Shown: positions 1,986 to 27,280 of the stretch, in pieces
Layout: the number at the start of each line of letters is the position of its first letter
How positions within the stretch are numbered: the first letter of the stretch is position 1
Origin: a virus
Reading direction: 5' to 3' (one strand)
DNA: 27,280 nt
IMG/VR virus record: IMGVR_UViG_3300030035_000142
Coordinates: 1-27,280 of that record
Translations under genes and position numbers: made by a program
Notes under the pieces: model-generated
Databases searched by the model: none
The model's input: the letters and a program-made list of their open reading frames with translations, nothing else
What the model was told of the DNA's origin: nothing

Positions 1986-4130
1986 TTAAGCTGGTCCGTA
2001 GGGGTAGAAGGTGCCTCCGAAGACGGGTATCTGGATCATGCCCAGCGCGTACTGCGTCACCTGGTCGTCTTCGATGTCGGCTATCAGAAAGGAATAGTCG
2101 AAGTTGACACCCGGTTTTTCTTGGGCAAGCATGATAGGATAAACGGTCCCCGGTATGCCAGATACGTCCGCGCCCGTCAGTTTGGCGTCCTGGTCGAAGT
2201 GGACGTTGAGCCATACTTCCCCGCTGGTTTGGGGGATAGTCACCCACGAGGAACCGGAACCGCCCCCCTGCGGATATTTGCCGAGCAGCGAGCCGTTCAG
2301 ATAGAGCGCGCCGGGCTTCATCTGCGCCCCGGTGATGGCTCCCTCCGTATCTTTCTGCAAGCGCACCTGAAAGCCGTATTCCGGCGCGGGCGTGGATTCT
2401 CCCGTGGATTTGGTGATGTGCTGGCTGATGGTGGGGGATTCCGGCTTGGGGTCAAAGCCGTATTCCGTCGATTCCGGCGCCCCCTGCATGTTTTCCAGCG
2501 TGGAAGAAATGTTAGAAACGGAATTAATTTCATTGAGCGAAAGCAAATCTTCAACCCCAAGTTGATTTGGCGCGCCGTAGGACAGGGAAATCGCGTTGGT
2601 CTGCAGGTCGCGCGAAACGGTTTGAATCATGGTGTTGATGTTCTGCCACTCTGGGTTGCCTCCCAGCAGCGAGACGCGCCGGCCCATGTATTGCCGCGTC
2701 TGCGCTTCTCCCAGCGCGACAAAGGAAATAGAGCCGTCCCAGGGCAATTCCTGCATGGATTCCCATACCGTTTTGGCAATGTCCCCATAGGGCACTCCTT
2801 CCGACGGTTCCGGCGATTCCCCTTCTTCCGGGCCGTTGGAGGGCTGTTCCCCGTTGTAGATGCCGTCAATGGGGTAGCTCGCGTAGGGGCGGTCCATGGT
2901 GACCAGATCCACCGAGAATTCTTCCCAGAAGCAGGGCACGCCTTGCAGGGTCCCCACATTCTTGAATTTCTCCCTCCACTTGGCCGGGGCGCTTTCCGGG
3001 ATGGCAAGACGCTGCTTGACGGTGGCGTTGCACCATTGCGGGCGGATGGATTTGGTATGAATTTGCCCGTCCGTCAGTTCATAGCCTGTGGCGGCGGTGT
3101 TGTAGCCTCGCGGCTTGTCTTCCTCCGTTCCGTCCCAGGGCTTCCCGGTGATGGTCGGATCCTGGTCATAGACGGCGATTGCTCCTACATCTTTCATCCA
3201 CGGGAAATGATGTTTCCAGAAACTGTTGATCATGTCGTTCTGGTCAATCCTGGTCCCCGTCACTTTCATGCGCTGGTAAGACAGGCTGCCGGCCCTGGTG
3301 CCCTGCACCGGCTGCGGATCTTCTACCGGCTCCCCCGTAGAACTGTATTTGGAGTAGTAGAAGTCTACTGACGTTCGGTAAACAATGGAGTGCGGCAAGG
3401 TCGGGTCCCCGTCTTCCGGGTATTTGGACAGGTAGGAGACGCGGTAGCCGTTGCTGCCGGTGGTTTCCGCGACGATAGCCACGCAGGGCGGTACGAGGTC
3501 GCCCCGGGGGACCAGGGAAACATCCATAGACTTGACCGTCGCCGTCGGCTGCAAGGGAAGCGCGATGGGCGTCAGGGCGTCATAGTCCGTGATGATGAGC
3601 TTGGGGCGCGCGCCGCTGTAGTCGTAGTAGGAAACCATGCGGGGCGACCAGCGGCGGATGGATTGAAGGAGGCTGCTCAGCGTATCGCAGGAGGCGTTCC
3701 ACGGAATCAGCATCTTGTCGTCGCTGATACGCAGCTCGTAGTCCGCCGGGTGGTGTTTGGCGAGGTTCAGCACCCGGGAGAGTGCGGAGGCAATGCTTAT
3801 CTTGGGAATGATGCCGCCCCCTCCGCTGACTTTATTCCACATGGAAAAGACCGGCTTCCATTCGGAATCCAGCGCAAAGCAGTTGTCCAGCCAATACCAG
3901 GGATCGGAAAAGACGATTTTCCACGCACGGGAAGAGCCGCTGTAGGTCTTTTCGATGCTGGAAACGAGGCCGGAAAGAATGGTGTTCCCGTTTTGGGAGA
4001 TGGAGACAGTATCGAACTGTTGGAAGGGTAAGACCTCCCCCAGCGTTCGCACGGGATAAACCGCGGTGATGGCGGAGGAGGAAAAGCTTTGCTGGTCGTG
4101 GGTCAGGCTCGACGGCTTGAGGCCCAGCAA
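1986..4130 (-). CDS. Large distal tail protein (714 aa from TTG; possible AGG start at 4157)
   Basis: Long ORF directly downstream of the tape-measure region, with no recognisable enzymatic motif. The function call rests on position and size. The first canonical start is TTG 4130. The frame is open back to TAA 4181-4179 with an in-frame AGG at 4157-4155. Confidence 0.55.
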   Translation of the reverse strand: MLGLKPSSLTHDQQSFSSSAITAVYPVRTLGEVLPFQQFDTVSISQNGNTILSGLVSSIEKTYSGSSRAWKIVFSDPWYWLDNCFALDSEWKPVFSMWNKVSGGGGIIPKISIASALSRVLNLAKHHPADYELRISDDKMLIPWNASCDTLSSLLQSIRRWSPRMVSYYDYSGARPKLIITDYDALTPIALPLQPTATVKSMDVSLVPRGDLVPPCVAIVAETTGSNGYRVSYLSKYPEDGDPTLPHSIVYRTSVDFYYSKYSSTGEPVEDPQPVQGTRAGSLSYQRMKVTGTRIDQNDMINSFWKHHFPWMKDVGAIAVYDQDPTITGKPWDGTEEDKPRGYNTAATGYELTDGQIHTKSIRPQWCNATVKQRLAIPESAPAKWREKFKNVGTLQGVPCFWEEFSVDLVTMDRPYASYPIDGIYNGEQPSNGPEEGESPEPSEGVPYGDIAKTVWESMQELPWDGSISFVALGEAQTRQYMGRRVSLLGGNPEWQNINTMIQTVSRDLQTNAISLSYGAPNQLGVEDLLSLNEINSVSNISSTLENMQGAPESTEYGFDPKPESPTISQHITKSTGESTPAPEYGFQVRLQKDTEGAITGAQMKPGALYLNGSLLGKYPQGGGSGSSWVTIPQTSGEVWLNVHFDQDAKLTGADVSGIPGTVYPIMLAQEKPGVNFDYSFLIADIEDDQVTQYALGMIQIPVFGGTFYPYGPA

Positions 4131-4235
4131 GTCATTGATGGTGATGTCGTGGTTCCTGCTGCTTGTAAAATGGTTATGTTATGGCTTGATGTTACCGTAT
4201 CTTGCCTGGTTCGGCAATGCGTTTACCTGTCCTAG

Positions 4236-4643
4236 TTATTTATTTTTGCTTAATAGGACATAAAACGTATACCACATAATTCCACCAATTACCCCCCCGA
4301 CGATATAGCCTATTCCAGCCATAGATAAGCCTGATATAAAACTTGCTATTCCCATAATTGCTCCACCACCAACTGACAATGTTGCTAAGAATACGAGGAC
4401 TGTGGCAAGAGCAGAATGACTTTCTTTGCAAGTTGGAACCTTATTAGGGGAATGCATGATCCCACTATTTTCCCTCAATAATGAAGAAGAAAATAACAAT
4501 TCCGAAGCCTTGACCCATTTTTTTGTACCTTCTGCGCAAATTAACGTGTCGGGAGAAATTATGTTTCTCTCGACTAACCTTCTTAACTCGGTAAGAACAA
4601 TAGGTCCCTTCACAACATTTCCGGAAAAATAGTGATACCGCAT
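4236..4643 (-). CDS. GYF_2 (DUF4339)-like domain protein with a C-terminal transmembrane segment
   Basis: The N-terminus YHYFSGNVVKGPIVLTELRRLVERNIISPDTLICAEGTKKWVKASEL matches the GYF_2 pattern. The C-terminus is hydrophobic and Gly-rich (LATVLVFLATLSVGGGAIMGIASFISGLSMAGIGYIVGGVIGGIMWYTF). The gene lies in an AT-rich island. Confidence 0.6.
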   Translation of the reverse strand: MRYHYFSGNVVKGPIVLTELRRLVERNIISPDTLICAEGTKKWVKASELLFSSSLLRENSGIMHSPNKVPTCKESHSALATVLVFLATLSVGGGAIMGIASFISGLSMAGIGYIVGGVIGGIMWYTFYVLLSKNK

Positions 4644-4676: not shown

Positions 4677-6524
4677 TCAATGCTTTCTTCTTCTTAAGCC
4701 CTCTATATTGTTTTTAGCTTGTTCTAAGTCTTTTTTCATTTGATCCAAACCGTTTTTTAGATTTTTTAGTTCTCCTGATTGAATGTTAATCAGTAATAGA
4801 GCTTCTTTCATGTTTCCGGAAAGTCCGTTCAATATAGATTGATTAGTAATGCCCTGTTGTCTTAAGGCGTCTCTAAACGCTATTCCAATTTGTTCATATT
4901 CTCGAGAATCTATTACTCCATCGGAAGCGGCTTTCTTCACCTGTCCACGTATAGCTTCAGATGCAGCTCTAACAAGTGCCTTTTGTTGGTCAGTGGCAGA
5001 TTTTCCAGCCTCCACTATAAACCTATCTACAGCCTCTGAAAAATACTCATTATTCTTTTTAAGTTCCTCTGTTTTCTTATCTATATCTTTTTTTCGCCCC
5101 TTAATTTCATTCTCGGCATCTTCTCTTTGTCTTTCTTCTCTAATGGATTTTCTCTCTTGCGCTTGAGCGGTCCTCCCTCGTTGTTCATCAACTGCCGCTT
5201 CCGATTCATTTTTCTTTTTTATATTAGAAAAGTTTCTCGTTGCCTTTTCTTCTTCATTTATAGCTTCTATTAGAGATTTTTCCGCCTCTTCATATTCTTT
5301 TTCAAGAGTTTCTATAGTTTTTGCATAAGATGCATAGGCATTACTATATCCACCTTCGCCAGAAGTTCCATTACCTAAAGAGAATCCGCTATCTTCAAGG
5401 GCAATATCACTCTTCTCTATGGCTTCTTCTGTGTTAAATATTTTATCTCTTCTATCTTCTGCGTTGATATAACCATATTTATCAAGCAAGGATGAAATTC
5501 TTCTATCAGATATATTTTTACCGCCAACAAATTGAGATACTGCATCATAAATATTTTTATCGCTAACTTGTTTATACCTAATAGCCCCTAAATTTACTTC
5601 TTTATCCCTTAAAGATATTAAATAATCGTATAAGTCATTTCTCAATGAATTAGTCTGTTCTTCTACAGAAACTTCTGCAGCTCGTCTCTCTTCCAGGGTC
5701 ATTATATCATCATTAATAGATGCGTTTTGCAAGGCGGCCTTAGCTTCTCTTTGTCTTCGTGCTGCATCTATTCTTTTATTTACTGCATCCGATACATCCA
5801 AACTTGCTGATTCTTCTATTTCTCCTCTTCTCCTTGCACGACTATCTAATTCAATTCCTTCCAACAAACGTGCTTTTCTTCGTTCTGCATCTGATCCTTC
5901 TCCTAATAGTCCATTTGCAAAATCTTCTTCTACCTTTAATCGGGCAATTTCTGCTTCATCGTCTTTGATTCCTGATTCTAAAGAAATCAATTCTTTACGA
6001 TAATCCAGAGAATATTTTAAGGCTTCTGATTCCAGCTTTCGATAATCAGCTATTTTCTTTGCACTATCTAAAGCTTCTCTTAAAATTTGCTCGTTTTGAT
6101 TTTGCCGCCATGTCTCTTCAACCTCTGCTTTTAATTTTCTAAATGCTTCTGCTTCCTCTTCAATCGCCTTAGCAAGCTCTTTGGATTTCGCTTCCGTGTT
6201 CCCCATCCAATCGTAAAGCTTCGCCCCGGCCAGAACGGCAAGCGACATCGCGCCGGCCAGACCTGCGCCGCCTCCGAAGCCCATCACCAGCCCCGGAATA
6301 TTGTTCATGATGCCCCGGATGCCGTACTGCAAGTCATCGAAGAAGTAGGCAGCCTGCAAGGCCCCCTGCCCCATGTTCTTCACGCTCCGGGTTGCCTGCT
6401 GGCTGTCTTTATCCAGCTGCTCCGTAGACTTGTTCAGGGAGTCAATTTTCTGTTTCGCTTCTTCCACGCCTTTTCCGTCCAGCGTGGACTTGAGCTTGAT
6501 TTCGATTTCTTTCTTGGTGGCCAT
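4677..6524 (-). CDS. Tape measure protein (compositionally chimeric)
   Basis: 615 aa. Gly-rich hydrophobic segment (GLVMGFGGGAGLAGAMSLAVLAGA) followed by a long K/E-rich coiled coil. It sits directly after a small chaperone-like ORF. The first ~110 codons are GC-rich and the rest is AT-rich. Confidence 0.7.
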   Translation of the reverse strand: MATKKEIEIKLKSTLDGKGVEEAKQKIDSLNKSTEQLDKDSQQATRSVKNMGQGALQAAYFFDDLQYGIRGIMNNIPGLVMGFGGGAGLAGAMSLAVLAGAKLYDWMGNTEAKSKELAKAIEEEAEAFRKLKAEVEETWRQNQNEQILREALDSAKKIADYRKLESEALKYSLDYRKELISLESGIKDDEAEIARLKVEEDFANGLLGEGSDAERRKARLLEGIELDSRARRRGEIEESASLDVSDAVNKRIDAARRQREAKAALQNASINDDIMTLEERRAAEVSVEEQTNSLRNDLYDYLISLRDKEVNLGAIRYKQVSDKNIYDAVSQFVGGKNISDRRISSLLDKYGYINAEDRRDKIFNTEEAIEKSDIALEDSGFSLGNGTSGEGGYSNAYASYAKTIETLEKEYEEAEKSLIEAINEEEKATRNFSNIKKKNESEAAVDEQRGRTAQAQERKSIREERQREDAENEIKGRKKDIDKKTEELKKNNEYFSEAVDRFIVEAGKSATDQQKALVRAASEAIRGQVKKAASDGVIDSREYEQIGIAFRDALRQQGITNQSILNGLSGNMKEALLLINIQSGELKNLKNGLDQMKKDLEQAKNNIEGLRRRKH

Positions 6525-8362: not shown

Positions 8363-8893
8363 TTACTGGTTGAGGTAGTCTTTCACCCCTTCGGCAATGG
8401 CTTCGGCAATGCGTCCGGGATGGTCCTTCATCAGGGCGGCGTTTTCAGGATTGGTGATAAATCCGCATTCGCACAGCACCCACGGACAGCGGGTCCTTTT
8501 CAGGACGGCGAGGCCCGGACGCGACTGGACGGTATTGGCCCGGCCGGGAAGCAGGCGGGAAAGAGGTTCCGCAATGCACATGGCCAGCCTGCTGCCCTTG
8601 ACGCTGCCCGGGTAAAAACACACATGGGCCCCATGGGCCTGGGGATTGTCGGAAGCGTCGCAATGCAGTGAGATGCCGAAGTCATAGCCGCCTTCATTGG
8701 CGGCCTTGATGGTGGCGTTCAAATCCTGGGCATTGCTCATGCCCGGAAAGTCAATCACGTCCACCTTGGCCCCCAGCTGCCGCAGCATGGGGGCGAGGCA
8801 TTCGGCGATCGTCACGGCGACGGCGTGTTCTTCAAGACCGTTCCCGCGGGCTCCGGTGTTGTTGGCATGTCCAATATCAATGGCTATTTTCAT
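8363..8893 (-). CDS. N-acetylmuramoyl-L-alanine amidase (Amidase_3-type endolysin)
   Basis: MKIAIDIGHANNTGA...EH...SLHCDAS...AHGAHVCF...LCECGFITNPENA matches the Zn-amidase type 3 pattern (DxGHG.., SiHaNa, E.gFisN). Confidence 0.85.
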   Translation of the reverse strand: MKIAIDIGHANNTGARGNGLEEHAVAVTIAECLAPMLRQLGAKVDVIDFPGMSNAQDLNATIKAANEGGYDFGISLHCDASDNPQAHGAHVCFYPGSVKGSRLAMCIAEPLSRLLPGRANTVQSRPGLAVLKRTRCPWVLCECGFITNPENAALMKDHPGRIAEAIAEGVKDYLNQ

Positions 8894-8954: not shown

Positions 8955-10118
8955 TTAATTAAACCGTTGATGGACAAAGAGCTTTTCAATCGTTTTTTTT
9001 GCGTTATTATTTGCCGCAAAGTGGCACGTTTTCGCTTTCTCCCATATGGGAACGAAATCAGAAGGAGCTTTGTATTCTGAAATGAATACCGGAAAATCTC
9101 TCGTCCGGCACCACTCCCAAAAGCGATCATGGTTAAAAAGTCCGGACTTATATCTTTCCGTCCCCTCATAAGGAGGGTCGGCATAAACCACACTACCTTC
9201 CGGAATTGTTATTTCAGTATAATCTTTCCCGCTAATTGTTAATTTCTTATCCAAATAGACATCGCTTTCCAGGCTTTCCAATCTTTGCAGACGTTCCAAG
9301 CTTTCCAGGCTTTCCAGGCTTTCCAATCTTTCCAGGCGTTCCAGGCTTTGCAGATGTTGACCGTAATAATCAACGGGGTGCAAGGTTGGCAAAATCTCAC
9401 GCAGCTTTTCAAACTCTTCCCGTGTGGGGAATGCCCATTGGCTGGATCCAAAATAATGACCCGCCATTTGAGACCCCAAATGGCGGTTTACCTCCGCTTG
9501 AGTTTTCCCAGACGCTTTCAGCGCAGCGCGCAGCTCACCTCTGAGCCATTCTTCAATATTGTCAATCTGGTCCAAAATAGAAGACCTTTGTTCCTTCCTC
9601 CTTTTCAATTCAGCCCGTGCATCCCTTAAGCCCTGAATGAATTTTTTAAACCAGGCCAGACGGTCCTCTCTGTTTTCGGACATGATCATACGGAGCGCCG
9701 CCAACTTTACTGGCTCAAGGTCTGCGTTCCATAAATAACATTCACCGTGATTTCCAAATGACCATAAGAGGGCGACCGCCGCATCATGATCTTTCACGCG
9801 GTTGAACTCATCCCGATCAACAGCCCTCCGGTCACAATCTGTCAAACGCCCTGTTGCCGCACGAAAAAATAAATCAGGAAATTGCCGCTGAATATCATTG
9901 GCGATGACCCTGGGCCACTTCCCCGACCATAATGCCGCATGAGTCATGGCACACCCACCCGCGAAAAGATCAACAAATACCGGCCCTTCTGGTAAAATAT
10001 TCACCAGATCTGCGGCGATCTTATTTTTTGAGCCCATATAAGGCAATCCGAAACTGGCAGGTTTTTTTCTCGGAAGAGCGCATGGGGAGCTTAACCGTCT
10101 GGGATAAGAAGCAATCAC
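8955..10118 (-). CDS. N6-adenine DNA methyltransferase (Dam/D12-class-like) with an internal LES/LER repeat
   Basis: N-terminal LPYMGSKNKIA..., AdoMet motif VDLFAGGCAM and catalytic VYADPPY. The start is uncertain: GTG 10118 overlaps the upstream gene, and the ATG at codon 28 is an alternative. The gene is visibly more AT-rich than its flanks. Confidence 0.8.
   Translation of the reverse strand: MIASYPRRLSSPCALPRKKPASFGLPYMGSKNKIAADLVNILPEGPVFVDLFAGGCAMTHAALWSGKWPRVIANDIQRQFPDLFFRAATGRLTDCDRRAVDRDEFNRVKDHDAAVALLWSFGNHGECYLWNADLEPVKLAALRMIMSENREDRLAWFKKFIQGLRDARAELKRRKEQRSSILDQIDNIEEWLRGELRAALKASGKTQAEVNRHLGSQMAGHYFGSSQWAFPTREEFEKLREILPTLHPVDYYGQHLQSLERLERLESLESLESLERLQRLESLESDVYLDKKLTISGKDYTEITIPEGSVVYADPPYEGTERYKSGLFNHDRFWEWCRTRDFPVFISEYKAPSDFVPIWEKAKTCHFAANNNAKKTIEKLFVHQRFN
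9264..9353 (-). repeat. In-frame imperfect 9-nt tandem repeat array inside the Dam-like methyltransferase gene
   Basis: The + strand shows repeated GGCTTTCCA / AGCTTTCCA / ATCTTTCCA units. They encode LQSLERLERLESLESLESLERLQRLESLES. Confidence 0.85.
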
Positions 10119-10662: not shown

Positions 10663-11067
10663 TTATTTAATAGTGAAATGCTTGAAAAACGCCACCGCGG
10701 CGGGGGCGGTAATGACGAACTCCGGGTAGTCGCGGTCCGTAAAAATCCTGCGCCCGCCCTGTGGATTGACGGCTTCCACGGCCAGATACACCGCCTCCAC
10801 TCCCACAATGGGGTCATCCTCATTGACAGGATCCGGGTAATACCAATCCTGTGTTGCCCACACCTGGACGGCCTGCCAATCCTCACCCAATCCCACCAGC
10901 GCGGCCACTACGGCGGCCATGGCCGGGGTCTGGTTCGCCGGAATCTCGTCCTGCGTATAGCGGTCTATGCGGGTGTACCCTTCCTCGTCCTGGTAAATGG
11001 CCGCCAGGCCGAATTCATCCCATTGACCGGGTTTCGGGAACTGTATTTGTATCTCGGAATTATTCAT
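10663..11067 (-). CDS. Hypothetical acidic protein downstream of the fibre gene (fibre-assembly candidate by position only)
   Basis: 134-aa ORF. Its ATG overlaps the fibre stop (ATGA). No motif recognised. Confidence 0.45.
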
Positions 11068-13004
11068 GATTCTATCGGCACGTTAATATCTTCAAAAGCG
11101 GCGGTTGCCTCGGATTCAACGGCATTCGTTCCTATTGCGTTCAACCCGTAAAAGAGGGGGTTCACATTGCCCGGCTGGTAGTAGGCATATTCTCCGGGCC
11201 CCGCATAAACGGAAGCCGTGCCGCTGGTGGTGTTGATCACATCCGTCACCCACCTGGAAATGCCGACGCCGGTCTCAAAATTGGAGACGCCCCGGCAGGT
11301 GGCGATCTTGAACAGGTTGTTGGTCTGTGCCCCCGTGACCAGCAGCCAGAGGCCTCCCAGGTTTTCATAAACGCTGCTGTTGGCAACCGTCTGCTGCTGG
11401 TAAATAATCTTGCACACCGTCCACGGGACGGGCTCGTTTTGCGTCGCCGGGATAAAGCTGGTCGTCGTCTTGACCTGCCATCCATCGGCGGACGTCAGCG
11501 CATAAATTTCACGCACGCGCACCGTATAGCCGTTGCGCGCCGTATCGCGCACGTTGTCAAAGGTGATGTCCAGAATCTCCCCGGAATTAAATGCCAGGTC
11601 ATTGCCCGGAATAATCGTGTAGGAGTCGGTGGTAAGGTCTGTCCTGATTGTTTTCGCCCCCCGTCCGATGCCCATCGTTATCTTCGCCGCGGCCGTGGCC
11701 CGCCAGACAAATGAAAAGCCGGCCCAGGAAGAATAATTCCATTGGGAACTGGGGCCTTCAAAAGGGGCCTGAATAGTCGTGTGAGCGCCCGCGGAAATTC
11801 CTATGCGGGCCATCTGGTAGGGAACCGTTTTAGTCACCGTTGCCGTGCCGGTAGTTGTCAGCGTGTCCGTATTCAGGAAAGCCGCCGCCGTATAAGCATT
11901 GGCTGCGCCTCCCATGCCCGCGGCATACAGGCGGTTGACGCCGGATTCATTGGTCGGCGCTCCCACGGCCAGCGGGATGTTGACGCCTCCATTGGCGTTG
12001 ATGGCGCTTGAAAACGTGGATGTCCCCGCGCAGTTGAAGCTGGCGCCCTGGCTGATATTCAGGATTCCGGTCTCTACCATGAATGTCCCTCTCAGCCATC
12101 CGCCCGACCGAAGATCGACCGACTGGTAAAACCGGGTGATCCCGTAAATCTGGTTCAGCGTGCCGGCGCTTCCGCTGCCGTCCGGGTTGTTGACCACCAG
12201 AGGCCCGTTCACGGTAGCTGATTCGGCTGTCAGGGCTCCCCCGATATTCACATCGCCAACGTTGGATGTCAGAGTACCAGGATCTCCCTTTTCCCCTTGC
12301 GGCCCCTGGGGGCCTGCCGGACCTTCCGGCCCCTGGGGGCCCTCCGGGCCTTGAGGCCCCGCCGGTCCTGTATCTCCCTTCGGTCCCTGCTCCCCGGTTT
12401 CGCCCTGCGGCCCGCGTTCCCCGGTTTCGCCGCGTGGACCTTGCGGCCCTTCGGGTCCGGTTTCACCCCGTTCACCCTGCGGGCCTGACGGTCCCTGAGG
12501 ACCAACATCCCCGCGGGGAATCGTGAAATTGAGCAGATAGGATCCTGATTCAGTTCCCTTGACGGCTTCCGCGTTGGCGGGCGTCCCCGGTTCCCCGGTG
12601 GTGACCTGACCCACGGACAGATTAAAATTCTCGGCGTACTTTTTGGCCTGCTCCGCGTACCAGGCGGCGCTGGACGCGTTATCAAGCATGATTTGCACGC
12701 AGCCGCTTCCTTCCGGCAGCTGCACGACGACCGCGCCCGCCACGGCCTGCTGTTCGTCCGGCAAGTCCGGCGTCACCCGGCCCGAAGAAACAAAGCATCC
12801 GTAAAGGAACGGGCTTTCCTCGTTTCCGTCGTCCATGAAGACGTCATAGGACCACATGCCCGCAGGCACCGAAGCCCAGGAAATTACGCCATTGCCCTCG
12901 TCATCGCGTGAAAAGCCGAACTCCGTCACGCCCGTCTTGAGACGGACAGCGCCGCGCAGGGTGACGCCGCTCATATCGACGGGATCGCCCTGAAAATCCA
13001 CCAC
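11064..13004 (-). CDS. Collagen-like repeat tail fibre protein (646 aa from GTG; possible AGG start at 13070)
   Basis: About 26 uninterrupted G-X-Y triplets ([76 protein letters not shown]), flanked by a beta-rich N-domain and a ~400-aa C-terminal domain. Confidence 0.8.
12276..12512 (-). repeat. Collagen triple-helix (G-X-Y)n coding repeat
   Basis: Read directly from the translation of residues ~165-243 of the fibre ORF. Confidence 0.9.
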
Positions 13005-13072
13005 GCGGACGACCAGGGACTGGTTCAGCCCTGTGACGGTCCGGATATCGTATTTACCTGCCTGCTGCCTGG

Positions 13073-13118: not shown

Positions 13119-13730
13119 TCAGGAACCCGGCACCGGCGTCACGTCCTGCACATTGGAAGGCGTGAAATTGTAGTCGCCGCGGTAATCCATTTCGAACTCG
13201 AACTGGGGTGAAGCGATCGCCGTGGTGTGTTCGGGGTCCTGCAGGAGGCGCAAATCTCCGTGCGCCACGCCCGTCAAGTACACCGTCCCCACGTCGTTCT
13301 GATACCAGAAACGGATATGTCCGGAAATTTTATTATCCCCGCCATGGCCGACGGTGGTCGATTCCTCGCCGTTGGCGGGAGCCGCCCCCAGGGCAAACGC
13401 CAGCTGGAAGTATTCGGGCGACATATCCGGCGTGGTGAAAGTCATCCGCTTGCCGGTCGTCGTGTTCTTGCGCTGCTGCCGGTAGCCAAGATTGCCTCCG
13501 TAAAAGCGCGTCACTTCCCCCTCGACCTGCGTGGCAACGGACTGGAACGCGCCCAGCAGCCCGAAACTCACCCAAGGCGCTTCGGGCCCGGCTGTCGGAT
13601 CGGCCGGAGGATTGGCGGGAGGTTCGGGATATTGGCCGGGGCCGGTAACGTAAGAGGCTCCCTCGTCCTCGGTCACCTTGATGCCGTCGGGGAGGAAAAT
13701 AGCCAGAACGCCGGTAATCTGCGGCGTCAC
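13119..13730 (-). CDS. Putative major tail (tube) protein (203 aa from GTG; possible AGG start at 13769)
   Basis: The function call rests on size and position after the head-completion genes. The frame is open back to the upstream gene's TAA. AGG GCT ACT at 13769 would give MATTYDPIFTNRNV... Confidence 0.45.
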   Translation of the reverse strand: MTPQITGVLAIFLPDGIKVTEDEGASYVTGPGQYPEPPANPPADPTAGPEAPWVSFGLLGAFQSVATQVEGEVTRFYGGNLGYRQQRKNTTTGKRMTFTTPDMSPEYFQLAFALGAAPANGEESTTVGHGGDNKISGHIRFWYQNDVGTVYLTGVAHGDLRLLQDPEHTTAIASPQFEFEMDYRGDYNFTPSNVQDVTPVPGS

Positions 13731-13784
13731 GTTGCGGTTGGTAAAGATAGGATCGTATGTAGTAGCCCTGATGCTTGAAAAAAG

Positions 13785-17036: not shown

Positions 17037-17777
17037 TTAATCGGCGGAGGCCGTCGCGTCGATGCGGACGATGGCGCCGGGGTTGGTCAGCTTGGTCAGC
17101 GAGTAGACGCGGTTGGTGACGAGCGTCAAGGCCAGCGTCGGCTTGTATTCGGTGATGACTTCGCGGCGAAGCTGGCCGGAAAGACCGAAGGTTTTGACGG
17201 CGGAGGCGTCGAACTGCGTCGGGGAATCTTCCTTGTACAGGACATAGACTTCGTTTTCCATGATGGTTTTCGCGTCGCCGGAAGCGTCGCGGTACGGCAT
17301 GGAGGCGATGTAAATATCCCGGATGGGCCGGATCAGAGCCATGCGAAGCAGGTCTTCGTTGAACAGGCCGACGCTGTTGAAGGAAACCACCTGGCGCGCG
17401 AGCGTGTTGGAGCGAAGCAGCTGCCACGCGTTGATGCCGAAGACAATCGTGTTCGGCATGTGTCCGGTTGCGGCGTTGATGGACAGGATCGCCTGGTCCA
17501 GATCCGCCAACGGGTTTTTCTGCTGGTTGGCCCAGTCACCCATCCCGGAAGCGGCCGGAAGCTGGCTCATCAGAAGCTTGGCGCGTTCGTATTCGTACGA
17601 CGTCACAAACTGGGATTCGATGAGTTTGTATTCCGCCAGGGTGATGGCCTGCGCCTTTTCCCGGTTGACGCCCAGCAAGGCGTCAGGGATGGGCAGCGTC
17701 AAGCCGTAGCCCTGAAGGGTGTCGGTTTCGTTTCTTCCGCGCAGGACGGTCTGGCGGGGAGGTTCGCCCGGTCCCAC
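17037..17777 (-). CDS. Major capsid protein, lambda gpE-like (coordinates from the first canonical GTG; true N-terminus probably at AGG 17963)
   Basis: PLADLDQAILSINAATGHMPNTIVFGINAWQLLRSN parallels lambda gpE PTDDIEAYALNASGVVNIIVFDPKGWALFRSF. At 246 aa it is too short for this family. The frame is open for 72 more codons upstream, and these read like capsid N-terminus. Confidence 0.75.
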   Translation of the reverse strand: MGPGEPPRQTVLRGRNETDTLQGYGLTLPIPDALLGVNREKAQAITLAEYKLIESQFVTSYEYERAKLLMSQLPAASGMGDWANQQKNPLADLDQAILSINAATGHMPNTIVFGINAWQLLRSNTLARQVVSFNSVGLFNEDLLRMALIRPIRDIYIASMPYRDASGDAKTIMENEVYVLYKEDSPTQFDASAVKTFGLSGQLRREVITEYKPTLALTLVTNRVYSLTKLTNPGAIVRIDATASAD

Positions 17778-17997
17778 CTGGATGGGCTGGACGGTGAAGG
17801 CCGATTCCGTGTCCCAGACCTTGTACTGGAAATTCAGGTCATAGACCGGGACGATCGGAGCGATGCGGCTGATGATGGAGTTCTCTTCTGTGTTCCCGGA
17901 CCCCGCGGAATAGGAGGTCAGGACATCGGTGAACTGAACGGCGGAGCAAAATGGAGTAGCCCTTGTTCTTGGTCTTTCTGTTGGTTGGGGTTAATAG

Positions 17998-18447: not shown

Positions 18448-19569
18448 TTATCGGTTGGCGGAGACGATGAAGCCTTCTTCGGTCGCTTTCTGGTAGGCGT
18501 CATAGCGCTTCATGCCGTCCTTGATCAGTTCGTTCACACGGTTGTTGAATCCTTCAATGGATTCCTTCTTGCGGAACGGATCAGGGGGATTCAGCGTCAC
18601 GCGGCGGTTCAGAGGCGTCCTTTGCGGAAGCTTCTTCTGCTCCGGCTGCTCCTGTTTCTGTGGGGCCGCCTGGCGGTTGAGCGCACGGATAAAGGCGTTC
18701 AGCGCGGCGGGGCTTTCCCGGAGAGAGTTTTTCAGCTCTTCCCGGCGTTCTTCCGTAAATTCCTCGCGTTCTTCCTCGTCCAGCGCGTTTTCGTACGTGC
18801 TGACGGCGTCGTCCACTTCGGCGTTCACGTGGTCTTTCTCGCGCTTTTCCAGCGAGAGCAGTTCATCAAGTCGTCCGAGGATCGCCCTGCTCATATCGTC
18901 GGTGCCGTCAAATTCGACATCCAGCTTGTCAAGCAGGGAATCGAACAGGGCCCGCTGGGCCTTGTCCATTTCCTTGGACGGATATTCTCTATCGTCGTTG
19001 TCCATATTGGTGTTCTGGGTTATTTCCCCCTCTTCGCGGGGCTTTTGTGGTTTGGTGTCGCCCCCGGCCTCGTCGGAGGCGGGGGAAGTCTGTCGGTTGA
19101 CCAGCGGCCGCTTTCCCTTGATGCGGGGTCGGTTGGTCAGGGCAAAGCCGGTCAGGCGCGACGGTCGGTAAACGCCGTCCGTAAAGGTCATGCCTTCGCC
19201 GTATTCCGTAGAAGATTGCGTATATTCTTTGTCCTCGAGCATCTTCAGGCCGCGGGGAGTCCATTCAATGAAGCCGTAGAGTTCCAGCGTACCGGAAGGG
19301 TCTCGGTAGGTGTCCAGCCTCTTGAGCCATCCGAGAGCCCGCGTATCGCGGGAAAGGTCGTGGCTCAGGTGGTCGCCGTCGATGAGCATGCCCGGCCCGT
19401 CAAAGGTGCGGGCGTTGAAGTCGTCCACCATGTCCCGGATCGCCTGCTCGTCGATGCGCAGCACGGCGGGTCCTTCACCGTAGTCGACGTCATGGTCTCC
19501 GCTTTTCTCGATGTGATACCAGCCGTTGGCGGGTCGGGACAGGTCATTGATTTGTTTCGTACTGATCAT
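18448..19569 (-). CDS. Mu gpI-like prohead protease / scaffold fusion
   Basis: The N-domain GDHLSHDLSRDTRALGWLKRLD...LELYGFIEWTPRGLKMLEDKEYTQSSTEY...RLTGFALTNRPRIKG matches the Mu-like prophage I protein pattern. The C-terminal half is an acidic coiled coil (scaffold-like). Confidence 0.7.
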   Translation of the reverse strand: MISTKQINDLSRPANGWYHIEKSGDHDVDYGEGPAVLRIDEQAIRDMVDDFNARTFDGPGMLIDGDHLSHDLSRDTRALGWLKRLDTYRDPSGTLELYGFIEWTPRGLKMLEDKEYTQSSTEYGEGMTFTDGVYRPSRLTGFALTNRPRIKGKRPLVNRQTSPASDEAGGDTKPQKPREEGEITQNTNMDNDDREYPSKEMDKAQRALFDSLLDKLDVEFDGTDDMSRAILGRLDELLSLEKREKDHVNAEVDDAVSTYENALDEEEREEFTEERREELKNSLRESPAALNAFIRALNRQAAPQKQEQPEQKKLPQRTPLNRRVTLNPPDPFRKKESIEGFNNRVNELIKDGMKRYDAYQKATEEGFIVSANR

Positions 19570-20680
19570 CGGTAAATCCTTTCATGAGTCCGGCGTAAAT
19601 CATTTGCTGAAGCTGCTCGTAGGCGTCGGGCGGAATGAGGGAGGCTCCCGACTCCCTGTTGACTGCCGCCGCCGTCGGCACAGGCTCCCTCGTGTCCTCG
19701 ATCGACATGCCGATCTTTTCTTCGATTTCGGTTTTCTCCGGACGGACGCCTCCGTCCGCAAGGGCGGCGATTTCCTCGGCCTTCTGCAATGGCGTCTGGA
19801 CGGTGTCAAAGGTGATGTGGAGGCGGGCCAGCGGTTCGCCGTCTCCCAATATAAGCGGGCTGATGGCGGTGTTGAACGCTTCCGCCACTTTGGAGCAGAC
19901 GGCGGATACCACCGCATTCCAGCTGTCCGTATGGGCGGACCCGGCCAGCGTGCCTGATCCTGATTCGTTCAGGACCGTCAGGGTTCCGGCCATCACAAAA
20001 CGCACCTGGTCCTTGTCGGCCATGTTGATGCGCGAGAGAAAATAGTTTTCGTTGATGTTGGACGCCTTGAGCGGTTCCGCCTTGCAGTCAGGAGGCAGCA
20101 CGATAGAGGCGCCTGATTTAAGCTGTTCGCAGGCCCGTTCCAGCGCGTCCATGACGGCGGGACTCGCGTCCTTGGGGGCGGTGATGATGACCGGGGCGCT
20201 TCCGTAGCGGTCCATGTGGTTGTCCCACGTGATTTTTGCGTGGTTGCGCTCAAAAGAAGCGCGGGCAGCCGGGAACAGGATGGGATACTGGTGTTCCATC
20301 ACGACGAGCGTTTCGTCTTCCACGCTTTCCCCGGTGTCGACGCCGATATAGCACTGTGGGTTGAACTGCCACTCGTTCAACACTCCCGGCCTCACCCAAT
20401 AGCGCTGTGGGATGAATTCAAAGCGGCGGCCCCAGGCGTCCTCAATGTATTGGAGGTGGGCGTAACCGTAGAACATGGCGGAGGCCAGCTGCCCAAAGGC
20501 CTGTTGAAGTCCGGTGACGGAGTGATAGAATTCTTCCAGCGCGTTCTGCTGACGCTGGGCTTCCGGGCTGTCGTCCGCGGCGTCAATCTTCCAGCCCTGC
20601 ATGGAGACGCTTTCAATGAGGCGGGAGTAGAGCATTCCCAGCAGCCCGTCCGAGTAGATGACCTCGTCCCAGATGAGCAT
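19544..20680 (-). CDS. Portal protein, Mu gp29 / DUF935-like (coordinates from the first ATG; true N-terminus probably at AGG 20908)
   Basis: 378 aa from the ATG is short for this family. The conserved block ...ADLQTLIDARNEARRGAFARQ|MLIWDEVIYSDGLLGMLYSRL spans the ATG. The frame is open upstream to within the tRNA gene and has no ATG/GTG/TTG. Confidence 0.8.
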   Translation of the reverse strand: MLIWDEVIYSDGLLGMLYSRLIESVSMQGWKIDAADDSPEAQRQQNALEEFYHSVTGLQQAFGQLASAMFYGYAHLQYIEDAWGRRFEFIPQRYWVRPGVLNEWQFNPQCYIGVDTGESVEDETLVVMEHQYPILFPAARASFERNHAKITWDNHMDRYGSAPVIITAPKDASPAVMDALERACEQLKSGASIVLPPDCKAEPLKASNINENYFLSRINMADKDQVRFVMAGTLTVLNESGSGTLAGSAHTDSWNAVVSAVCSKVAEAFNTAISPLILGDGEPLARLHITFDTVQTPLQKAEEIAALADGGVRPEKTEIEEKIGMSIEDTREPVPTAAAVNRESGASLIPPDAYEQLQQMIYAGLMKGFTDDQYETNQ

Positions 20681-20928
20681 TTGGCGGGCAAAGGCTCCCC
20701 GCCGCGCTTCGTTCCGGGCGTCAATCAGGGTTTGCAGGTCGGCTCCCTGTAACGGATCCCAATATTCGAACCATTGGGGCCTGCCTGGCTTGCGGCTTTG
20801 TTCCGTCAGGGCTCGCCGGGTGAGATCCGTTTCAAGTTCCTTGATTCTGGTCTCCTGTTGGGCGACCAGCTTCGGGGCGTTGAGGATATTTCTTAATGCG
20901 TTAAACCTGCGGCGAAAGAAAAAAATGG

Positions 20929-21002
20929 TGGTTGCAGGGGGGGGAATTGGACCCCCTACTCGGGCACAGGAAACCCGCGTGATAACGTTTCACCACCCTG
21001 CG
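20929..21002 (-). tRNA. tRNA, anticodon CCU (AGG-reading), with an initiator-like acceptor stem and a non-canonical D/T loop
   Basis: Manual cloverleaf: CGCAGGG UG GUGA-AACGUUA-UCAC G CGGGU-UUCCUGU-GCCCG AGUA GGGGG-UCCAAUU-CCCCC CCCUGCA A CCA. All stems pair (one U.G), U33 is present, position 37 is a purine and CCA is encoded. Position 1:72 is a C x A mismatch. Confidence 0.6.
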
Positions 21003-21018
21003 ATTGTTTACATATCGT

Positions 21019-21047
21019 CATATATTGATATATTGATATATTGTCAA
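21019..21047 (-). promoter_or_regulatory. Near-consensus sigma70-type promoter directly upstream of the tRNA
   Basis: The minus strand reads TTGACA (21047-21042), a 17-nt spacer, then TATATG (21024-21019), about 17 nt before tRNA position 1. It starts 2 nt after the terL stop codon. Confidence 0.4.
21021..21044. repeat. 3 x 8-nt tandem repeat TATATTGA / TATATTGA / TATATTGT
   Basis: Read directly from the + strand. It fills the spacer and -10 region of the putative tRNA promoter. Confidence 0.85.
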
Positions 21048-21049
21048 CC

Positions 21050-22357
21050 CTAATATCTCCCGTAAGCGCGTTTTGATGACACGGGCCGGGCGTACCAGGC
21101 TCCCAGCGTCCGGGCCAGTCCGCTGTGCCGGCGCGCGTGCCAGGCCATGACGAGGGCGTCGGCGCGGTCGGGAGAACGGACGCCCCGTTTCGCCATGTCT
21201 TCCTTGCTTTCGATTTTGACGCGGCCGATCGCGTCGGTTTGGAGCCGGGGCGCTACCAGCTGCTCAATCGTGTCCTCGTCAATGTCGAGGATGAGTTCCT
21301 TTTCTTCGATGGCTCGGGCCAGGGCCCGCCACGCCTGGGCGCGGAGGTTGACAAAGGCCTGCGTATCGTCTGCCGGGAAACCGCCCCGGTAGGAGTGCAC
21401 CGGGAAGCCCTCGGCGCGGAAGTCGTCAATGATGGGTAGTCCAAGGCCGTCTCCGTCCGCGTAAATGCGGTCGGCGGGGATGCCGAGTTCGGACGCCCTG
21501 CGGCGGAACCGTCCGCGCGCTCCTACGGTGTCCGGGTCCGACCAGTGGTCGGCGATGAAGAATCGGTTGCCCTGCCCGGCCGCGAAGACGTTTTCGTCGC
21601 CTCCGGCCGCGAAGTCGAAGCCGCCGCAGGTCTCCCCGGTGTCCAGAAAGGGAGGCGGGTTGTTGACCAGATCCATGAGGGCGCGCCGGGGAATGACGGA
21701 CTGACCGTCGAGGTCCGTGAATTCGCCGAGGATGGCGGAGCGGTAGAAGGAGGACTGCTCGCCGTATTCTTTTTTCAGGCGCTCGGCCTTGCCCGGGTCA
21801 TTGATCTCAATGTGGGGGCAATCCTCGTATTTGACGCGGATCTTGTAGTAGAGGGATGAATTTTTGTGGAAGCAGTCGTAGAAGGTGCCGGAATCGGCCC
21901 CAGGTGACGAGGTAATGAACGCGTGGAAGAGCGTGCAGCGGGAAACGGCGGTGAAGATGGAGTCCGGGATGGTTTTAGCCTCGTCGAGGACGTAAAAGAC
22001 GGGGTCCACGTCGGGCGAGATTTTCGGGTGCCATCCTTCCGCGCGGCCGGCGTTGTCGGTCGAGAAGCCCACGGCAAAGCCTCCCTCCGGCGTGCGAATC
22101 TCGGTTTTGTTGAATGTCCAGCCGTCAAAGAAAGGGTTGTCCATGTAGCGGCGGAGCGCGGGAAAGAGCTGCTTTTCCACCTGCATCCACGACGACGACG
22201 TAACCGGCACCTGACCCCGCGGGAAGCAGGTAAGGAAGTACAGGATGGCCGGAGCGATGCAGTTGCTCGTCTTGCCGGATCCGTTGGGAGCAACCAGAGC
22301 CACGCTTTTCCCTCCCAGGGTCAGCTTGCCGAGGGACAACGCCTTGATGGCTTCCAC
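21050..22357 (-). CDS. terL: Terminase large subunit (coordinates from the first canonical GTG; true N-terminus probably at AGG 22423)
   Basis: Walker A VAPNGSGKT, Walker B-like FYVLDEAK and a C-terminal nuclease-type acidic motif (SPDRADALVMA). The typical TerL N-terminal block FFLRHVLRLDPYPWQ lies upstream of the GTG. Confidence 0.9.
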   Translation of the reverse strand: MEAIKALSLGKLTLGGKSVALVAPNGSGKTSNCIAPAILYFLTCFPRGQVPVTSSSWMQVEKQLFPALRRYMDNPFFDGWTFNKTEIRTPEGGFAVGFSTDNAGRAEGWHPKISPDVDPVFYVLDEAKTIPDSIFTAVSRCTLFHAFITSSPGADSGTFYDCFHKNSSLYYKIRVKYEDCPHIEINDPGKAERLKKEYGEQSSFYRSAILGEFTDLDGQSVIPRRALMDLVNNPPPFLDTGETCGGFDFAAGGDENVFAAGQGNRFFIADHWSDPDTVGARGRFRRRASELGIPADRIYADGDGLGLPIIDDFRAEGFPVHSYRGGFPADDTQAFVNLRAQAWRALARAIEEKELILDIDEDTIEQLVAPRLQTDAIGRVKIESKEDMAKRGVRSPDRADALVMAWHARRHSGLARTLGAWYARPVSSKRAYGRY

Positions 22358-22429
22358 CTGCCAGGGATAGGGATCCAGGCGGAGGACATGGCGGAGGAAG
22401 AAGCTGACGGGGAGGCGTGTCCTGGTCTG

Positions 22430-22996
22430 TTAAGCGTGGAGTTTGCCGGCGATGGTTTCCAGCGCGGTTTTCTCGTCTTCCTGCAGCTGGGCCAGCTGCT
22501 CGGGGTCCAGGGTGATTTTCCGTTCCAGCGGCGCGCCGGGAACGCCGGCGACATCCTGACGGACCCGGTCGCCGAATTTTTCCGGCGCGAATCGGGCGGC
22601 GACTTTCAGCCGGGTTTCAATGGCGAGCTTCTTCGCGGCGACGGAGGCGGAGCCGCATTCCGGGTCCAAGGCGACTTTCGCGGCTTCGTCGGCCAGCTCC
22701 TGACAGGCGTCAATCATAGCTTCCGACTGCGCTTCCCGCGCGCGTTGAATGATTTTACAAAACTCTTCCCGCTCATGTCTCCATCTCCAGACAGTTAAAA
22801 CATCCGGCATGTGGTCATCGGAGCAGATGGATTTCATGGTTTCCCCGTTGGCAAGACGGGTGGCTATCTCGGCGGCCAGTTCCTCGGTGTAGAGGCTCGG
22901 CCGCCCCGGTTTTCTTTTGGTGGTAGGTTTCTTTTTCCTTCCGGGACGATAAGATTTTTTTAGTAGCGCGTCAAAACAAGATTTTTTCTCTTGCAT
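22430..22996 (-). CDS. terS: Terminase small subunit
   Basis: I start at ATG 22996 (MQEKKSCF...). GRPSLYTEELAAEIATRLANGETMKSICSDDHMPDVLTVWRWRHEREEFCKIIQRAREAQSEAM matches the widespread HTH-type TerS N-domain. The 270-aa long form is antisense to the neighbouring + gene and looks hydrophobic and junk-like. Confidence 0.7.
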   Translation of the reverse strand: MQEKKSCFDALLKKSYRPGRKKKPTTKRKPGRPSLYTEELAAEIATRLANGETMKSICSDDHMPDVLTVWRWRHEREEFCKIIQRAREAQSEAMIDACQELADEAAKVALDPECGSASVAAKKLAIETRLKVAARFAPEKFGDRVRQDVAGVPGAPLERKITLDPEQLAQLQEDEKTALETIAGKLHA

Positions 22997-23376: not shown

Positions 23377-23745
23377 ATGACTAAAAACGAATTAACAGAA
23401 ATTCTCAAACTGCACGAAATGTGGCTGAACGAGGAAGAAGGCGGCGCTCAGGCCAAATTTGAAGACCTCGACCTCAGGGGGCTCGACTTTAGGGGTGCTA
23501 ACTTAATCAAGGCTGACTTTAAGGACGCCGACTGTTCCGGAGTTGATTTCACAGGGGCCGACTTGAGATGTGCCGATTTCACCGGGGCCAATCTAACCGG
23601 GACCGATTTCTCCGGGTGCAATCTGAAATGGGCCAATTTTTACAAGGCCAATCTAACCGGAGCCAGATTTAACGGGGCTATCCTGGAATGCGCCGACTTT
23701 AGATGGGCCCGCGGGATTGTCGATCTGACCGTAGGGAAAGCTTAA
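23377..23745 (+). CDS. Pentapeptide-repeat protein
   Basis: About 18 consecutive A(D/N)LXX-type pentapeptides (DLRGLDFRGANLIKADFKDADCSGVDFTGADLRCADFTGANLTGTDFSGCNLKWANFYKANLTGARFNGAILECADF). Confidence 0.85.
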   Translation: MTKNELTEILKLHEMWLNEEEGGAQAKFEDLDLRGLDFRGANLIKADFKDADCSGVDFTGADLRCADFTGANLTGTDFSGCNLKWANFYKANLTGARFNGAILECADFRWARGIVDLTVGKA

Positions 23746-26341: not shown

Positions 26342-27280
26342 TCAAAAAAGCGTCAGTTGGGGGTTGTTTTTCATGATTCTGCCGAGCAGAACCCGGAATG
26401 CAGTTGCCGCCACAGCAGGTACTTGCCCATTGCCAAGGGCTTTAATGCGGTCCACTCTAGCGGCCACCCCATGAGCCACTCGACCCACGTCGGGTTCAGC
26501 TGACCACCATTCCCCGCAGTCATTTGTCTCCGCTCGTCCGGCGTGATAATTCCCTTGGTTTCCAGGTCTTTCATTTTCTGAAAACTCCCCGTCCCCCCGC
26601 ACATCCCCTTGGTGCGGGGTGTTGGAAACTGTGAAACCATAGTTATCAATTTCTTCCCTGTTGCCCGGTTGATTTCCTTGCCGCCGCAACTGGCGGTTGG
26701 AGTAGGAAACATCCGGACAAATTCGGACAATCCCTGTTGCCTGCTGTTTGGGCCACGTCTCTTGTGATCCGAGGCAAGGGGGCTTGGGAACATCTCTACG
26801 AACTCGTATGGATTGGGCGGCTTGTTGCCCTCCCGAAACTTCTTGCTCCGATTCTTCCCGGAAGCGGTTGGAGTTCCGATCCATACACCTCTTTTCAAAG
26901 AGGCTTTCCGGGAATTCGACCCTCCGTCGAGACCTTTCGTTGTCGCTGTTGGCCACATCATCCCCGGCATCCAGCCTGTTGTCGCTACATCCATCAGGCT
27001 CTTGGGTCCCCGTGAATGGCTCCCCTTGTTGGGGGCGTTGCAAGCCGTTGGCGTGGGGATCATGTGCAAGTATCCAGATGCGCTTTCTGACGTGCGGGGC
27101 TCCCACATCGTCCGCTCCCAGCACAAGCCATTCCGCATCGTACCCGATTTCGGCAAGATCACCGAGGACTCTGGCAAGTCCTCGTCCCACAAGCAAAGGT
27201 GAGTTTTCCAGGAATGCGAATTTCGGTCGTACCTCATTGATAATTCGGTGCATTTCCCGCCAGAGCCCGGAGCGGGCGCC
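26342..27280 (-). CDS. DNA cytosine-5 methyltransferase, 5' end outside the window (frame A; a second fully open frame overlaps it)
   Basis: Frame A carries LWREMHRIINEVRPKFAFLENSP (motif IV-VI region, ENV-like), GYDAEWLVLGADDVGAPHVRKRIWILA (motif VIII-like) and the C-terminal EPDVGRVAHGVAARVDRIKALGNGQVPAVA (motif X-like). It is open to the window edge. Confidence 0.7.
   Translation of the reverse strand, partial: GARSGLWREMHRIINEVRPKFAFLENSPLLVGRGLARVLGDLAEIGYDAEWLVLGADDVGAPHVRKRIWILAHDPHANGLQRPQQGEPFTGTQEPDGCSDNRLDAGDDVANSDNERSRRRVEFPESLFEKRCMDRNSNRFREESEQEVSGGQQAAQSIRVRRDVPKPPCLGSQETWPKQQATGIVRICPDVSYSNRQLRRQGNQPGNREEIDNYGFTVSNTPHQGDVRGDGEFSENERPGNQGNYHAGRAETNDCGEWWSAEPDVGRVAHGVAARVDRIKALGNGQVPAVAATAFRVLLGRIMKNNPQLTLF

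Follow-up and report, generated by a model that had tools for sequence, protein, structure and literature searches.

The prophage that fills the 27,280-nucleotide (nt) window analysed here (the whole stretch, IMG/VR virus record IMGVR_UViG_3300030035_000142, positions 1 to 27,280) appears to encode a dedicated initiator-type tRNA with a CCU anticodon, and the starts of six of its virion and packaging genes appear to have been converted from ATG or TTG to AGG, the codon that such an anticodon would read. We put the probability of this reading, drawn from comparison of related phage sequences, at about 0.78. Initiator-like features are conserved in the tRNA and its stems covary, the AGG codons stand at the N-termini of their genes, ATG and AGG interchange at start positions, and AGG starts co-occur with the tRNA. 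The window covers nearly the whole of an Akkermansia muciniphila prophage, and 75% of its length aligns at ~90% identity with Akkermansia phage DTMo-2021a (CP084202, locus L001), which is carried by A. muciniphila NBRC 114322. The tRNA gene and the six genes (protein lengths in amino acids, aa) lie as follows.

20929..21002, minus strand: tRNA gene with anticodon CCU and encoded CCA (ARAGORN, Rfam, covariation and fold)
21050..22423, minus strand: large terminase (phrog_2), AGG at 22423-22421
19544..20908, minus strand: portal (Portal_Mu, PF06074), AGG at 20908-20906
17037..17963, minus strand: major capsid protein (phrog_1005 / PF03864), AGG at 17963-17961
13119..13769, minus strand: 216-aa virion-module protein, no family hit, AGG at 13769-13767
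11064..13070, minus strand: collagen-repeat tail fibre (PF01391, tail-fibre PHROGs), AGG at 13070-13068
1986..4157, minus strand: 723-aa late protein, no family hit, AGG at 4157-4155

The tRNA gene is genuine. ARAGORN reports it as the sole tRNA in the window, typed as Arg with anticodon CCT, and the Rfam tRNA model (RF00005) scores it at 47.4 bits against a gathering score of 29 (E = 2.2e-7), its alignment containing a single non-canonical pair, 1:72. Both programs thereby agree with the 74-nt minus-strand cloverleaf described in a first-pass annotation of this DNA, all of whose listed arms match the sequence. RNAfold leaves nucleotides 1 and 72 unpaired in the cloverleaf that it predicts for the variant commonest among relatives (-28.2 kcal/mol, z = -2.1), and it returns a near-cloverleaf with a shifted D-arm register for the window copy (-31.5 kcal/mol, z = -2.0). 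The window tRNA carries C1xA72, G2:C71, C3:G70 and A73, and its anticodon stem is CGGGU/GCCCG.

We collected relatives with a portal-based IMG/VR search, one genome scan and one metagenome scan, which together gave ~120 loci with portals 82-96% identical; the tRNA lies directly upstream of the portal gene in all but two of them. The scan of genome contigs contributed one locus only, from a metagenome-assembled genome of A. muciniphila, and the metagenome scan contributed close relatives only (83-96% identical). Pattern scans of IMG/VR found no tRNA of the same type outside this phage family. An alignment of 21 distinct tRNA sequences from related Akkermansia prophage contigs shows 20 of 21 stem pairs to be paired in 100% of the variants. 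Changes on both sides of a pair occur at 8 pairs where 2.3 are expected, a value reached in 0 of 500 shuffles, and they are located at 4:69, 7:66, 27:43, 29:41, 31:39 and three pairs of the T stem. Against this variation, C1xA72, A73, C3:G70, G30:C40 and the CCU anticodon are invariant in all 21 variants, and G2:C71 is replaced once, by G:U. The acceptor end that the first-pass annotation had likened to tRNA-fMet is therefore a property of the family (G2:C71, C3:G70 and A73 in 20/21, 21/21 and 21/21 variants), as are the unpaired 1:72 and the CCU anticodon, and among the variants we found neither a better fold that pairs 1:72 nor any other anticodon.

In initiators, recognition by the formyltransferase is determined by the 1:72 mismatch in combination with 2:71 and 3:70, and three G:C pairs in the anticodon stem license the 30S-to-70S transition, the middle pair being the essential one (PMC5389676). 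In most relatives the anticodon stem of the phage tRNA is CGGGG/CCCCG, which places G:C pairs at 29:41, 30:40 and 31:39, the canonical initiator register. By class, 29-31:39-41 is GC/GC/GC in 17/21 variants, au/GC/GC in 2 and GC/GC/U:G in 2, the window copy being one of the last two. Natural initiators include the exceptions au/GC/GC and GC/GC/gu (PMC5389676); the latter has G31:U39, whereas the phage copy has U31:G39, in the reverse orientation. The window copy is thus a derived variant, in which both U31:G39 and the D loop AACGUUA depart from the commoner form. For this reason two earlier observations, a G:C run one register off that of initiators and a D loop without GG, hold for the window copy and fail for most relatives, in which G31:C39 is present and the D loop, as in the commonest variant, is AACGGUA with G18G19.

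Compared feature by feature, the phage tRNA has the non-Watson-Crick 1:72, the G2:C71, C3:G70 and A73 set and the three G:C pairs of an initiator, and lacks the purine 11:pyrimidine 24 pair (A11:U24) and the CAU anticodon with its Met identity. From the set expected of an elongator tRNA-Arg(CCU) it has C35, U36 and A/G73, and lacks A20, a paired 1:72 and a demand for AGG. Elongators that read ANN codons carry N6-threonylcarbamoyladenosine at position 37 (t6A37), and bacterial tRNA-fMet does not; position 37 of the phage tRNA is G, U or A among the variants and in most is not A, and it is never in a t6A-type context. In the host tRNA-Glu and tRNA-Cys genes that adjoin the prophage, 1:72 is paired and the T loop is TTCGA.

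The first-pass annotation had also pointed to six late genes that seem to need AGG initiation, and analysis of stop-to-stop frames of the minus strand bears this out at all six AGG positions listed above. Most late genes have an ATG within 10 codons (<=10) of the upstream in-frame stop. In the six genes the first ATG, GTG or TTG lies 9 to 76 codons inside the frame, with an AGG near the upstream stop in each case. The first canonical start of the large terminase is 22 codons past its AGG, which is in frame with the small terminase TAA and follows it after two codons (TAA CAG ACC AGG, 22421-22432). In the portal gene the first ATG is 76 codons past an AGG that lies 20 nt beyond the 3' end of the tRNA, and the AGG of the tail fibre directly follows a hairpin and T-run.

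The stretches between AGG and the first canonical start behave as coding sequence. None contains an in-frame stop in any relative, and variable sites fall mostly at the third codon position, with counts at positions 1/2/3 of 26/14/65 in the portal, 14/14/46 in the capsid, 6/3/18 in the large terminase, 3/2/14 in the tail fibre and 3/5/10 in the 216-aa protein. AGG is the first conserved in-frame codon, the sequence upstream of it varying by insertions and deletions (indels) that are not multiples of three. Among loci of the tRNA-bearing family, AGG is kept at the start of the portal in 122/122, the capsid in 110/111, the 216-aa protein in 81/81, the tail fibre in 76/76 and the 723-aa protein in 25/25 (24 further loci and L001). 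For the large terminase the count among tRNA-bearing loci is 108/109, the exception being an ATG in locus L014. Given also that homologs have canonical starts at the AGG position, as described below, we read the six AGG codons as the true N-termini. At the frequency of AGG inside genes, the chance of finding it at four exactly aligned first codons is ~1e-9.

Some regularities surround these starts. The base just before AGG (22424, 20909, 17964, 13770, 13071 and 4158) is C at five of the six sites and A at the capsid, and is invariant in relatives. The leaders contain little G, and in several of them CAAGCA(N)C directly precedes the start. A fourth codon-anticodon pair, between tRNA position 37 and this base at -1, was considered and set aside, as within the family C(-1) is found at 5/6 sites for G37 and A37 alike, with no covariation. 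Across lineages G37 goes with C(-1), and U37 goes with A(-1) in the distant locus L189, which is suggestive only.

A sister lineage without the tRNA shows what the starts look like in its absence. This lineage comprises L067, L185 and L186, L067 being a syntenic, lower-GC phage that carries the capsid homolog P0001; together the three loci span the lineage from a point 10 kb upstream of the large terminase gene as far as the integrase, and no tRNA was found in this span. Here ATG or TTG stands exactly at five of the six AGG positions and within two codons of the sixth. The portal starts with TTG at the aligned codon (L067/L186). The capsid begins ATG CCT AAT in L067 against AGG GCT ACT in the window, the 216-aa protein ATG GCA ACT ACT (L067/L185/L186) against AGG GCT ACT ACA, and the tail fibre has ATG at the aligned codon (L067/L185/L186). 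A distant homolog of the 723-aa protein (P0065, L185) begins ATG ACA CAC GAC (MTHDITIND) against AGG AAC CAC GAC (xNHDITIND) in the window, and the large terminase of L067 has an ATG two codons upstream of the aligned position. In protein alignment, the capsid homologs P0001, P0006 and P0048 place M exactly in the AGG column. Further tRNA-less relatives (L187, L190/L191) likewise use ATG. The survey of related prophages for co-occurrence of tRNA and AGG, which the first-pass annotation had suggested, thus came out in favour of its proposal, with ~120 tRNA-bearing loci keeping AGG and the tRNA-less lineage being canonical. Locus L014, the most divergent member in which the tRNA is present, has ATG at the capsid and large terminase and AGG at the three other covered sites; it has reverted two sites to ATG.

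A seventh gene varies within the family itself.

8363..8893, minus strand: endolysin (Amidase_3), ATG start in the window

Its start is ATG in 23 loci, the window included, and AGG in 20 of 43 (relatives with one or the other include L124, L184 and L071), with an identical Shine-Dalgarno sequence, AAAGGAGA, at the same spacing. This polymorphism indicates that AGG and ATG can replace each other as start codons, and, as far as the compared genomes tell, only in those that have this tRNA. In the window, an AGG within the endolysin Shine-Dalgarno sequence (8905) is also in frame with the ATG, four codons upstream of it and right after a stop.

Two more distant lineages, reached through large terminase homologs, have a tRNA in the same slot. 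The tRNA of L189 (NCBI GCA_965336545.1) has a CCU anticodon and the acceptor stem CGCGGAT/ATCCGCA, in which C1xA72 and A73 are kept and both partners of pairs 6:67 and 7:66 are altered. Its portal has an AGG start 54 codons ahead of the first canonical codon, and the resulting N-terminus aligns to that of the window portal (xFQSLKQFFRAPGLVAQQ against xFNALRNILNAPKLVAQQ). The second lineage, L188, is a single 6.8-kb Logan contig, and we treat it as a lead and not as a result. Its tRNA (2035-2110) shares the acceptor stem of the window copy and has C1xA72, A73 and three G:C pairs. The D arm, GAGC/GCUC, exactly matches that of E. coli tRNA-fMet and includes A11:U24, a purine-pyrimidine pair at 11:24 seen neither in the 21 variants nor in L189. 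It matches E. coli tRNA-fMet at 58/78 positions (74%), which suggests initiator ancestry. The anticodon loop, AUCCCUUA, is 8 nt long and is given as 'ccct' by ARAGORN; a pattern scan for this type of loop elsewhere gave chance matches only. Gene starts on this contig lie at ~594, 2129 and 5039. The large terminase and capsid genes have no canonical start ahead of the conserved N-terminal blocks, and where the start is expected they carry A-GGU and U-GGG. In the portal gene that position reads A-GGG, with a GTG 17 codons later as a possible alternative. What this one contig suggests is that the tRNA derives from an initiator and that anticodon and start codon have co-evolved.

The usual explanation for phage tRNAs (PMC10264068) would make this an ordinary arginine-charged elongator bound by EF-Tu, supplementing codons or replacing a host tRNA-Arg cut by an anticodon nuclease, with the AGG starts unrelated and weakly read by host fMet-tRNA. 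ARAGORN types the tRNA as Arg(CCU), its 11:24 pair is that of an elongator, and the phage genes do contain internal AGG codons. These amount to 31 of 6155 codons in the phage genes of the window, or 5.0 per 1000, against 3.4 per 1000 in the tRNA-less L067, a frequency we judge to be no commoner, and there are none in the capsid gene or the 216-aa gene. Internal AGG is so rare that codon supply does not explain the tRNA, and codon usage thus speaks against the ordinary AGG-supplying elongator that the first-pass annotation had named as the outcome that would overturn its proposal. An elongator would also have to retain C x A at 1:72 in all variants and two further lineages while neighbouring pairs covary, to have the three G:C pairs, and to do without A20 and, in most variants, without A37. 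It leaves six or seven replacements of ATG by AGG, confined to tRNA-bearing lineages, without an explanation, and AGG is a poor start with wild-type tRNA-fMet, suppressed by IF3 (PMC6868393), which makes weak reading by the host implausible for a major capsid protein. We consider this explanation quite improbable.

Even less credible, and in our view almost certainly wrong, is that the AGG codons are not starts at all and that the genes begin at downstream ATG, GTG or TTG codons behind untranslated leaders. Public gene calls do place the starts there. In NCBI, ENA and Logan records the capsid is begun at an internal GTG or ATG, giving 246 or 278 aa instead of 308, the 723-aa protein is begun at a downstream TTG, and the portal is truncated in L189 (calls with wrong starts are P0002, P0005, P0012, P0033 and P0049-P0059). 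Untranslated leaders, however, would not show the third-position bias and freedom from stops described above, would not align residue by residue to the N-termini of homologs with M in the AGG column, and would not end, on their upstream side, where indels begin to break the frame.

A different question is what the tRNA carries. It may initiate at AGG with methionine or another residue that is not arginine, so that the proteins begin with fMet as usual. Its acceptor stem is almost that of tRNA-fMet, the resemblance of the L188 tRNA to E. coli tRNA-fMet suggests that it arose from an initiator, the A20 expected for ArgRS is missing, and the formylase prefers Met. MetRS, however, needs the full CAU, in which A35 is here replaced by C35, and C35 is the main ArgRS determinant; moreover, initiator tRNAs (i-tRNAs) with mutated anticodons have been reported to be charged by non-cognate synthetases. 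We regard methionine or another such residue as unlikely, with arginine the likeliest, as ArgRS takes its identity elements from C35, U36 and A73 and the CAU that MetRS recognizes is lacking, the anticodon being CCU in every variant, as noted earlier.

Several observations weigh against an AGG-reading initiator tRNA charged with arginine. The 11:24 pair is U:A in 21/21 variants and in L189, as the first-pass annotation had cautioned for the window copy. The T loop is mostly UCCAA, with C55; the earlier remark that U55 is lacking applies to most variants and not to the few that have it. The ArgRS element A20, previously described as not evident, is indeed absent, the base after G18G19 being U (U20), and this makes both the amino acid identity and the efficiency of charging uncertain. 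The formyltransferase of E. coli disfavours basic amino acids such as Lys, and formylation of an Arg-tRNA may therefore be poor. Two loci, L080 and L110, keep the AGG portal start (L110 also that of the capsid; the capsid start of L080 is unmatched) with only the last 12-16 nt of the tRNA, and an intact tRNA is absent from the covered part of these contigs. In both, a foreign replication module with a Toprim primase and an ERCC4 nuclease (L110 1-9990, L080 1-3530), related to a different, 36-kb Akkermansia phage family (L130-L157), is joined to the tRNA remnant at a junction corresponding to window position 20940. They could be defective recombinants or depend on a tRNA elsewhere, and recombination or insertion at the tRNA gene could have produced them. 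Finally, the association between tRNA and AGG rests on few independent lineages, three with the tRNA and about three without.

Taken together, the fold, the survey of relatives and codon usage support, on computational grounds, the earlier proposal of an initiator-like tRNA driving AGG initiation. In the mechanism we propose, the tRNA would be transcribed from its own sigma-70-like promoter in the gap between the large terminase and portal genes, matured, and then aminoacylated, most likely with arginine. C1xA72 with G2:C71 and C3:G70 would exclude EF-Tu and make the tRNA a substrate for the host formyltransferase and for IF2. The G:C pairs at 29-31:39-41, with G30:C40 invariant, would allow binding to the P site and passage of the IF3 checkpoint, and the CCU anticodon would pair there with AGG; since the two are fully complementary, IF3 would not reject the pairing. 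An engineered E. coli i-tRNA(CCU) with AGG gave the largest fold-change in 5/6 strains and the second-largest in the sixth, from 35- to 402-fold, and its authors ranked AGG/CCU the most robust non-canonical initiation pair (bioRxiv 10.64898/2026.04.16.719103). Efficient synthesis of the six proteins would then require the phage tRNA, which would act as a translational lock or timer on virion production, and AGG would be a start signal that does not rely on host tRNA-fMet. Any benefit to the phage is a matter of speculation: the arrangement could be a lock against leaky prophage transcripts, a timer, or a source of independence if host tRNA-fMet is targeted.

To our knowledge every known natural initiator tRNA has a CAU anticodon, and non-AUG starts are read by that same tRNA. 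In full-text literature searches we found neither a natural initiator tRNA with a non-CAU anticodon nor a phage with AGG starts, only engineered non-AUG initiators. The phage tRNA resembles bacterial tRNA-fMet of the E. coli metZWV/metY type in C1xA72, G2:C71, C3:G70, A73 and CCA and, in most variants, in the three G:C pairs; only 4:69 differs between the acceptor stems, and one variant has G4:C69 as in E. coli. It differs in its CCU anticodon, U11:A24, 7-nt D loop and mostly UCCAA T loop, and in being phage-encoded and serving a subset of genes. It also shares with engineered orthogonal initiators, such as the amber initiator and i-tRNA(CCU)/AGG, an initiator body with an altered anticodon directed at the complementary non-AUG start; those, however, are laboratory constructs made from E. 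coli tRNA-fMet, whereas the phage tRNA is natural, diverged, prophage-borne and matched by evolved AGG starts of virion genes that are essential. Phage elongator tRNA-Arg(CCU/UCU) has the same anticodon and receives the same automatic annotation, but the phage CCU tRNA differs from it in the unpaired 1:72, the three G:C pairs, the absence of A20, and an AGG codon that is not enriched and is found at starts.

Stop-codon-recoded gut phages reportedly encode suppressor tRNAs (Borges, Peters and colleagues, 2022). There too a phage tRNA changes the meaning of a codon concentrated in late and structural genes, plausibly tying late expression to the phage's own tRNA; suppressors let a stop be read as sense in elongation, whereas the CCU tRNA would let a sense codon be read as a start through initiation. 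A canonical phage initiator is present in L206, a large phage from IMG/VR that is unrelated to this family and encodes more than 30 tRNAs; its initiator-type tRNA-Met(CAU) at 4564-4639 (CGCGGAT...ATCCGCAACCA) has C1xA72 and an acceptor stem, CGCGGAT/ATCCGCA, the same as that of the L189 CCU tRNA. Unlike the CCU tRNA, it keeps CAU and reads normal starts. In its fuller form, which we think probable though with less confidence than the conversion of the starts itself, the proposed phage system would be natural, virus-encoded orthogonal initiation, with a private AGG start on essential virion genes, proteins that start with a residue other than Met, probably Arg or formyl-Arg, and a tRNA and start codon that co-evolve.

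The remaining features of the prophage give the setting of the tRNA gene. The late genes run on the minus strand in the order small terminase, large terminase, tRNA, portal, Mu-like protease, capsid, head and tail genes, tail fibre, endolysin and others down to 1986.

23242-22430, minus strand: small terminase
21019..21047, minus strand: promoter-like TTGACA-N17-TATATG (sequence reading)
1-1188, plus strand: tyrosine integrase, at the prophage end

The promoter-like element begins 3 nt past the large-terminase stop and ends 16 nt 5' of the tRNA. It is kept in L001, and the same gap in the tRNA-less L067 and L186 has TTGACA-N17-TATGTT; a consensus promoter scanner passed over the window element because its second hexamer ends in G. 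A scan of the window called no terminator between the tRNA and the portal gene, so that one transcript may carry the tRNA along with the genes from portal to tail. In relatives (L165, L170, L174, L181 and L182), host tRNA-Glu(UUC) and tRNA-Cys(GCA) genes lie just past the integrase end, ~2 kb beyond the 723-aa gene, and flank the integrase in a way that makes them the probable attachment site. We also considered whether the CCU tRNA is itself an attP or tRNA remnant at a prophage end, and rejected this, as it is located inside the prophage, in the large terminase-portal gap, is also present in the complete phage CP084202, and has the integrase and host tRNAs at the other end.

Elsewhere in the window we noted the following.

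8955-10118 and 26342-27253, both minus strand: two DNA methyltransferases, D12-class N6-adenine and C5-cytosine enzymes
4677-6524, minus strand: a low-GC island (GC 0.35-0.41) with a 615-aa open reading frame that has 25 AGA codons and no family match, which looks recently acquired in the tail region
23377-23745, plus strand: a pentapeptide-repeat protein, encoded in another patch of low GC (0.44), opposite in strand to the late genes and in the gap between the small terminase and the early region

One consequence concerns annotation, since hundreds of public Akkermansia records contain large terminase, portal, capsid and tail genes that gene callers have cut short. The AGG/CCU system would also be a ready-made set of natural parts for orthogonal initiation. 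If the reading is right, this would be the first natural reassignment of a start codon and a new form of viral gating of late genes, in which virion proteins would depend on a phage RNA and be independent of host tRNA-fMet. The host, A. muciniphila, is a therapeutically important gut commensal, and the biology of its prophages matters for that reason.

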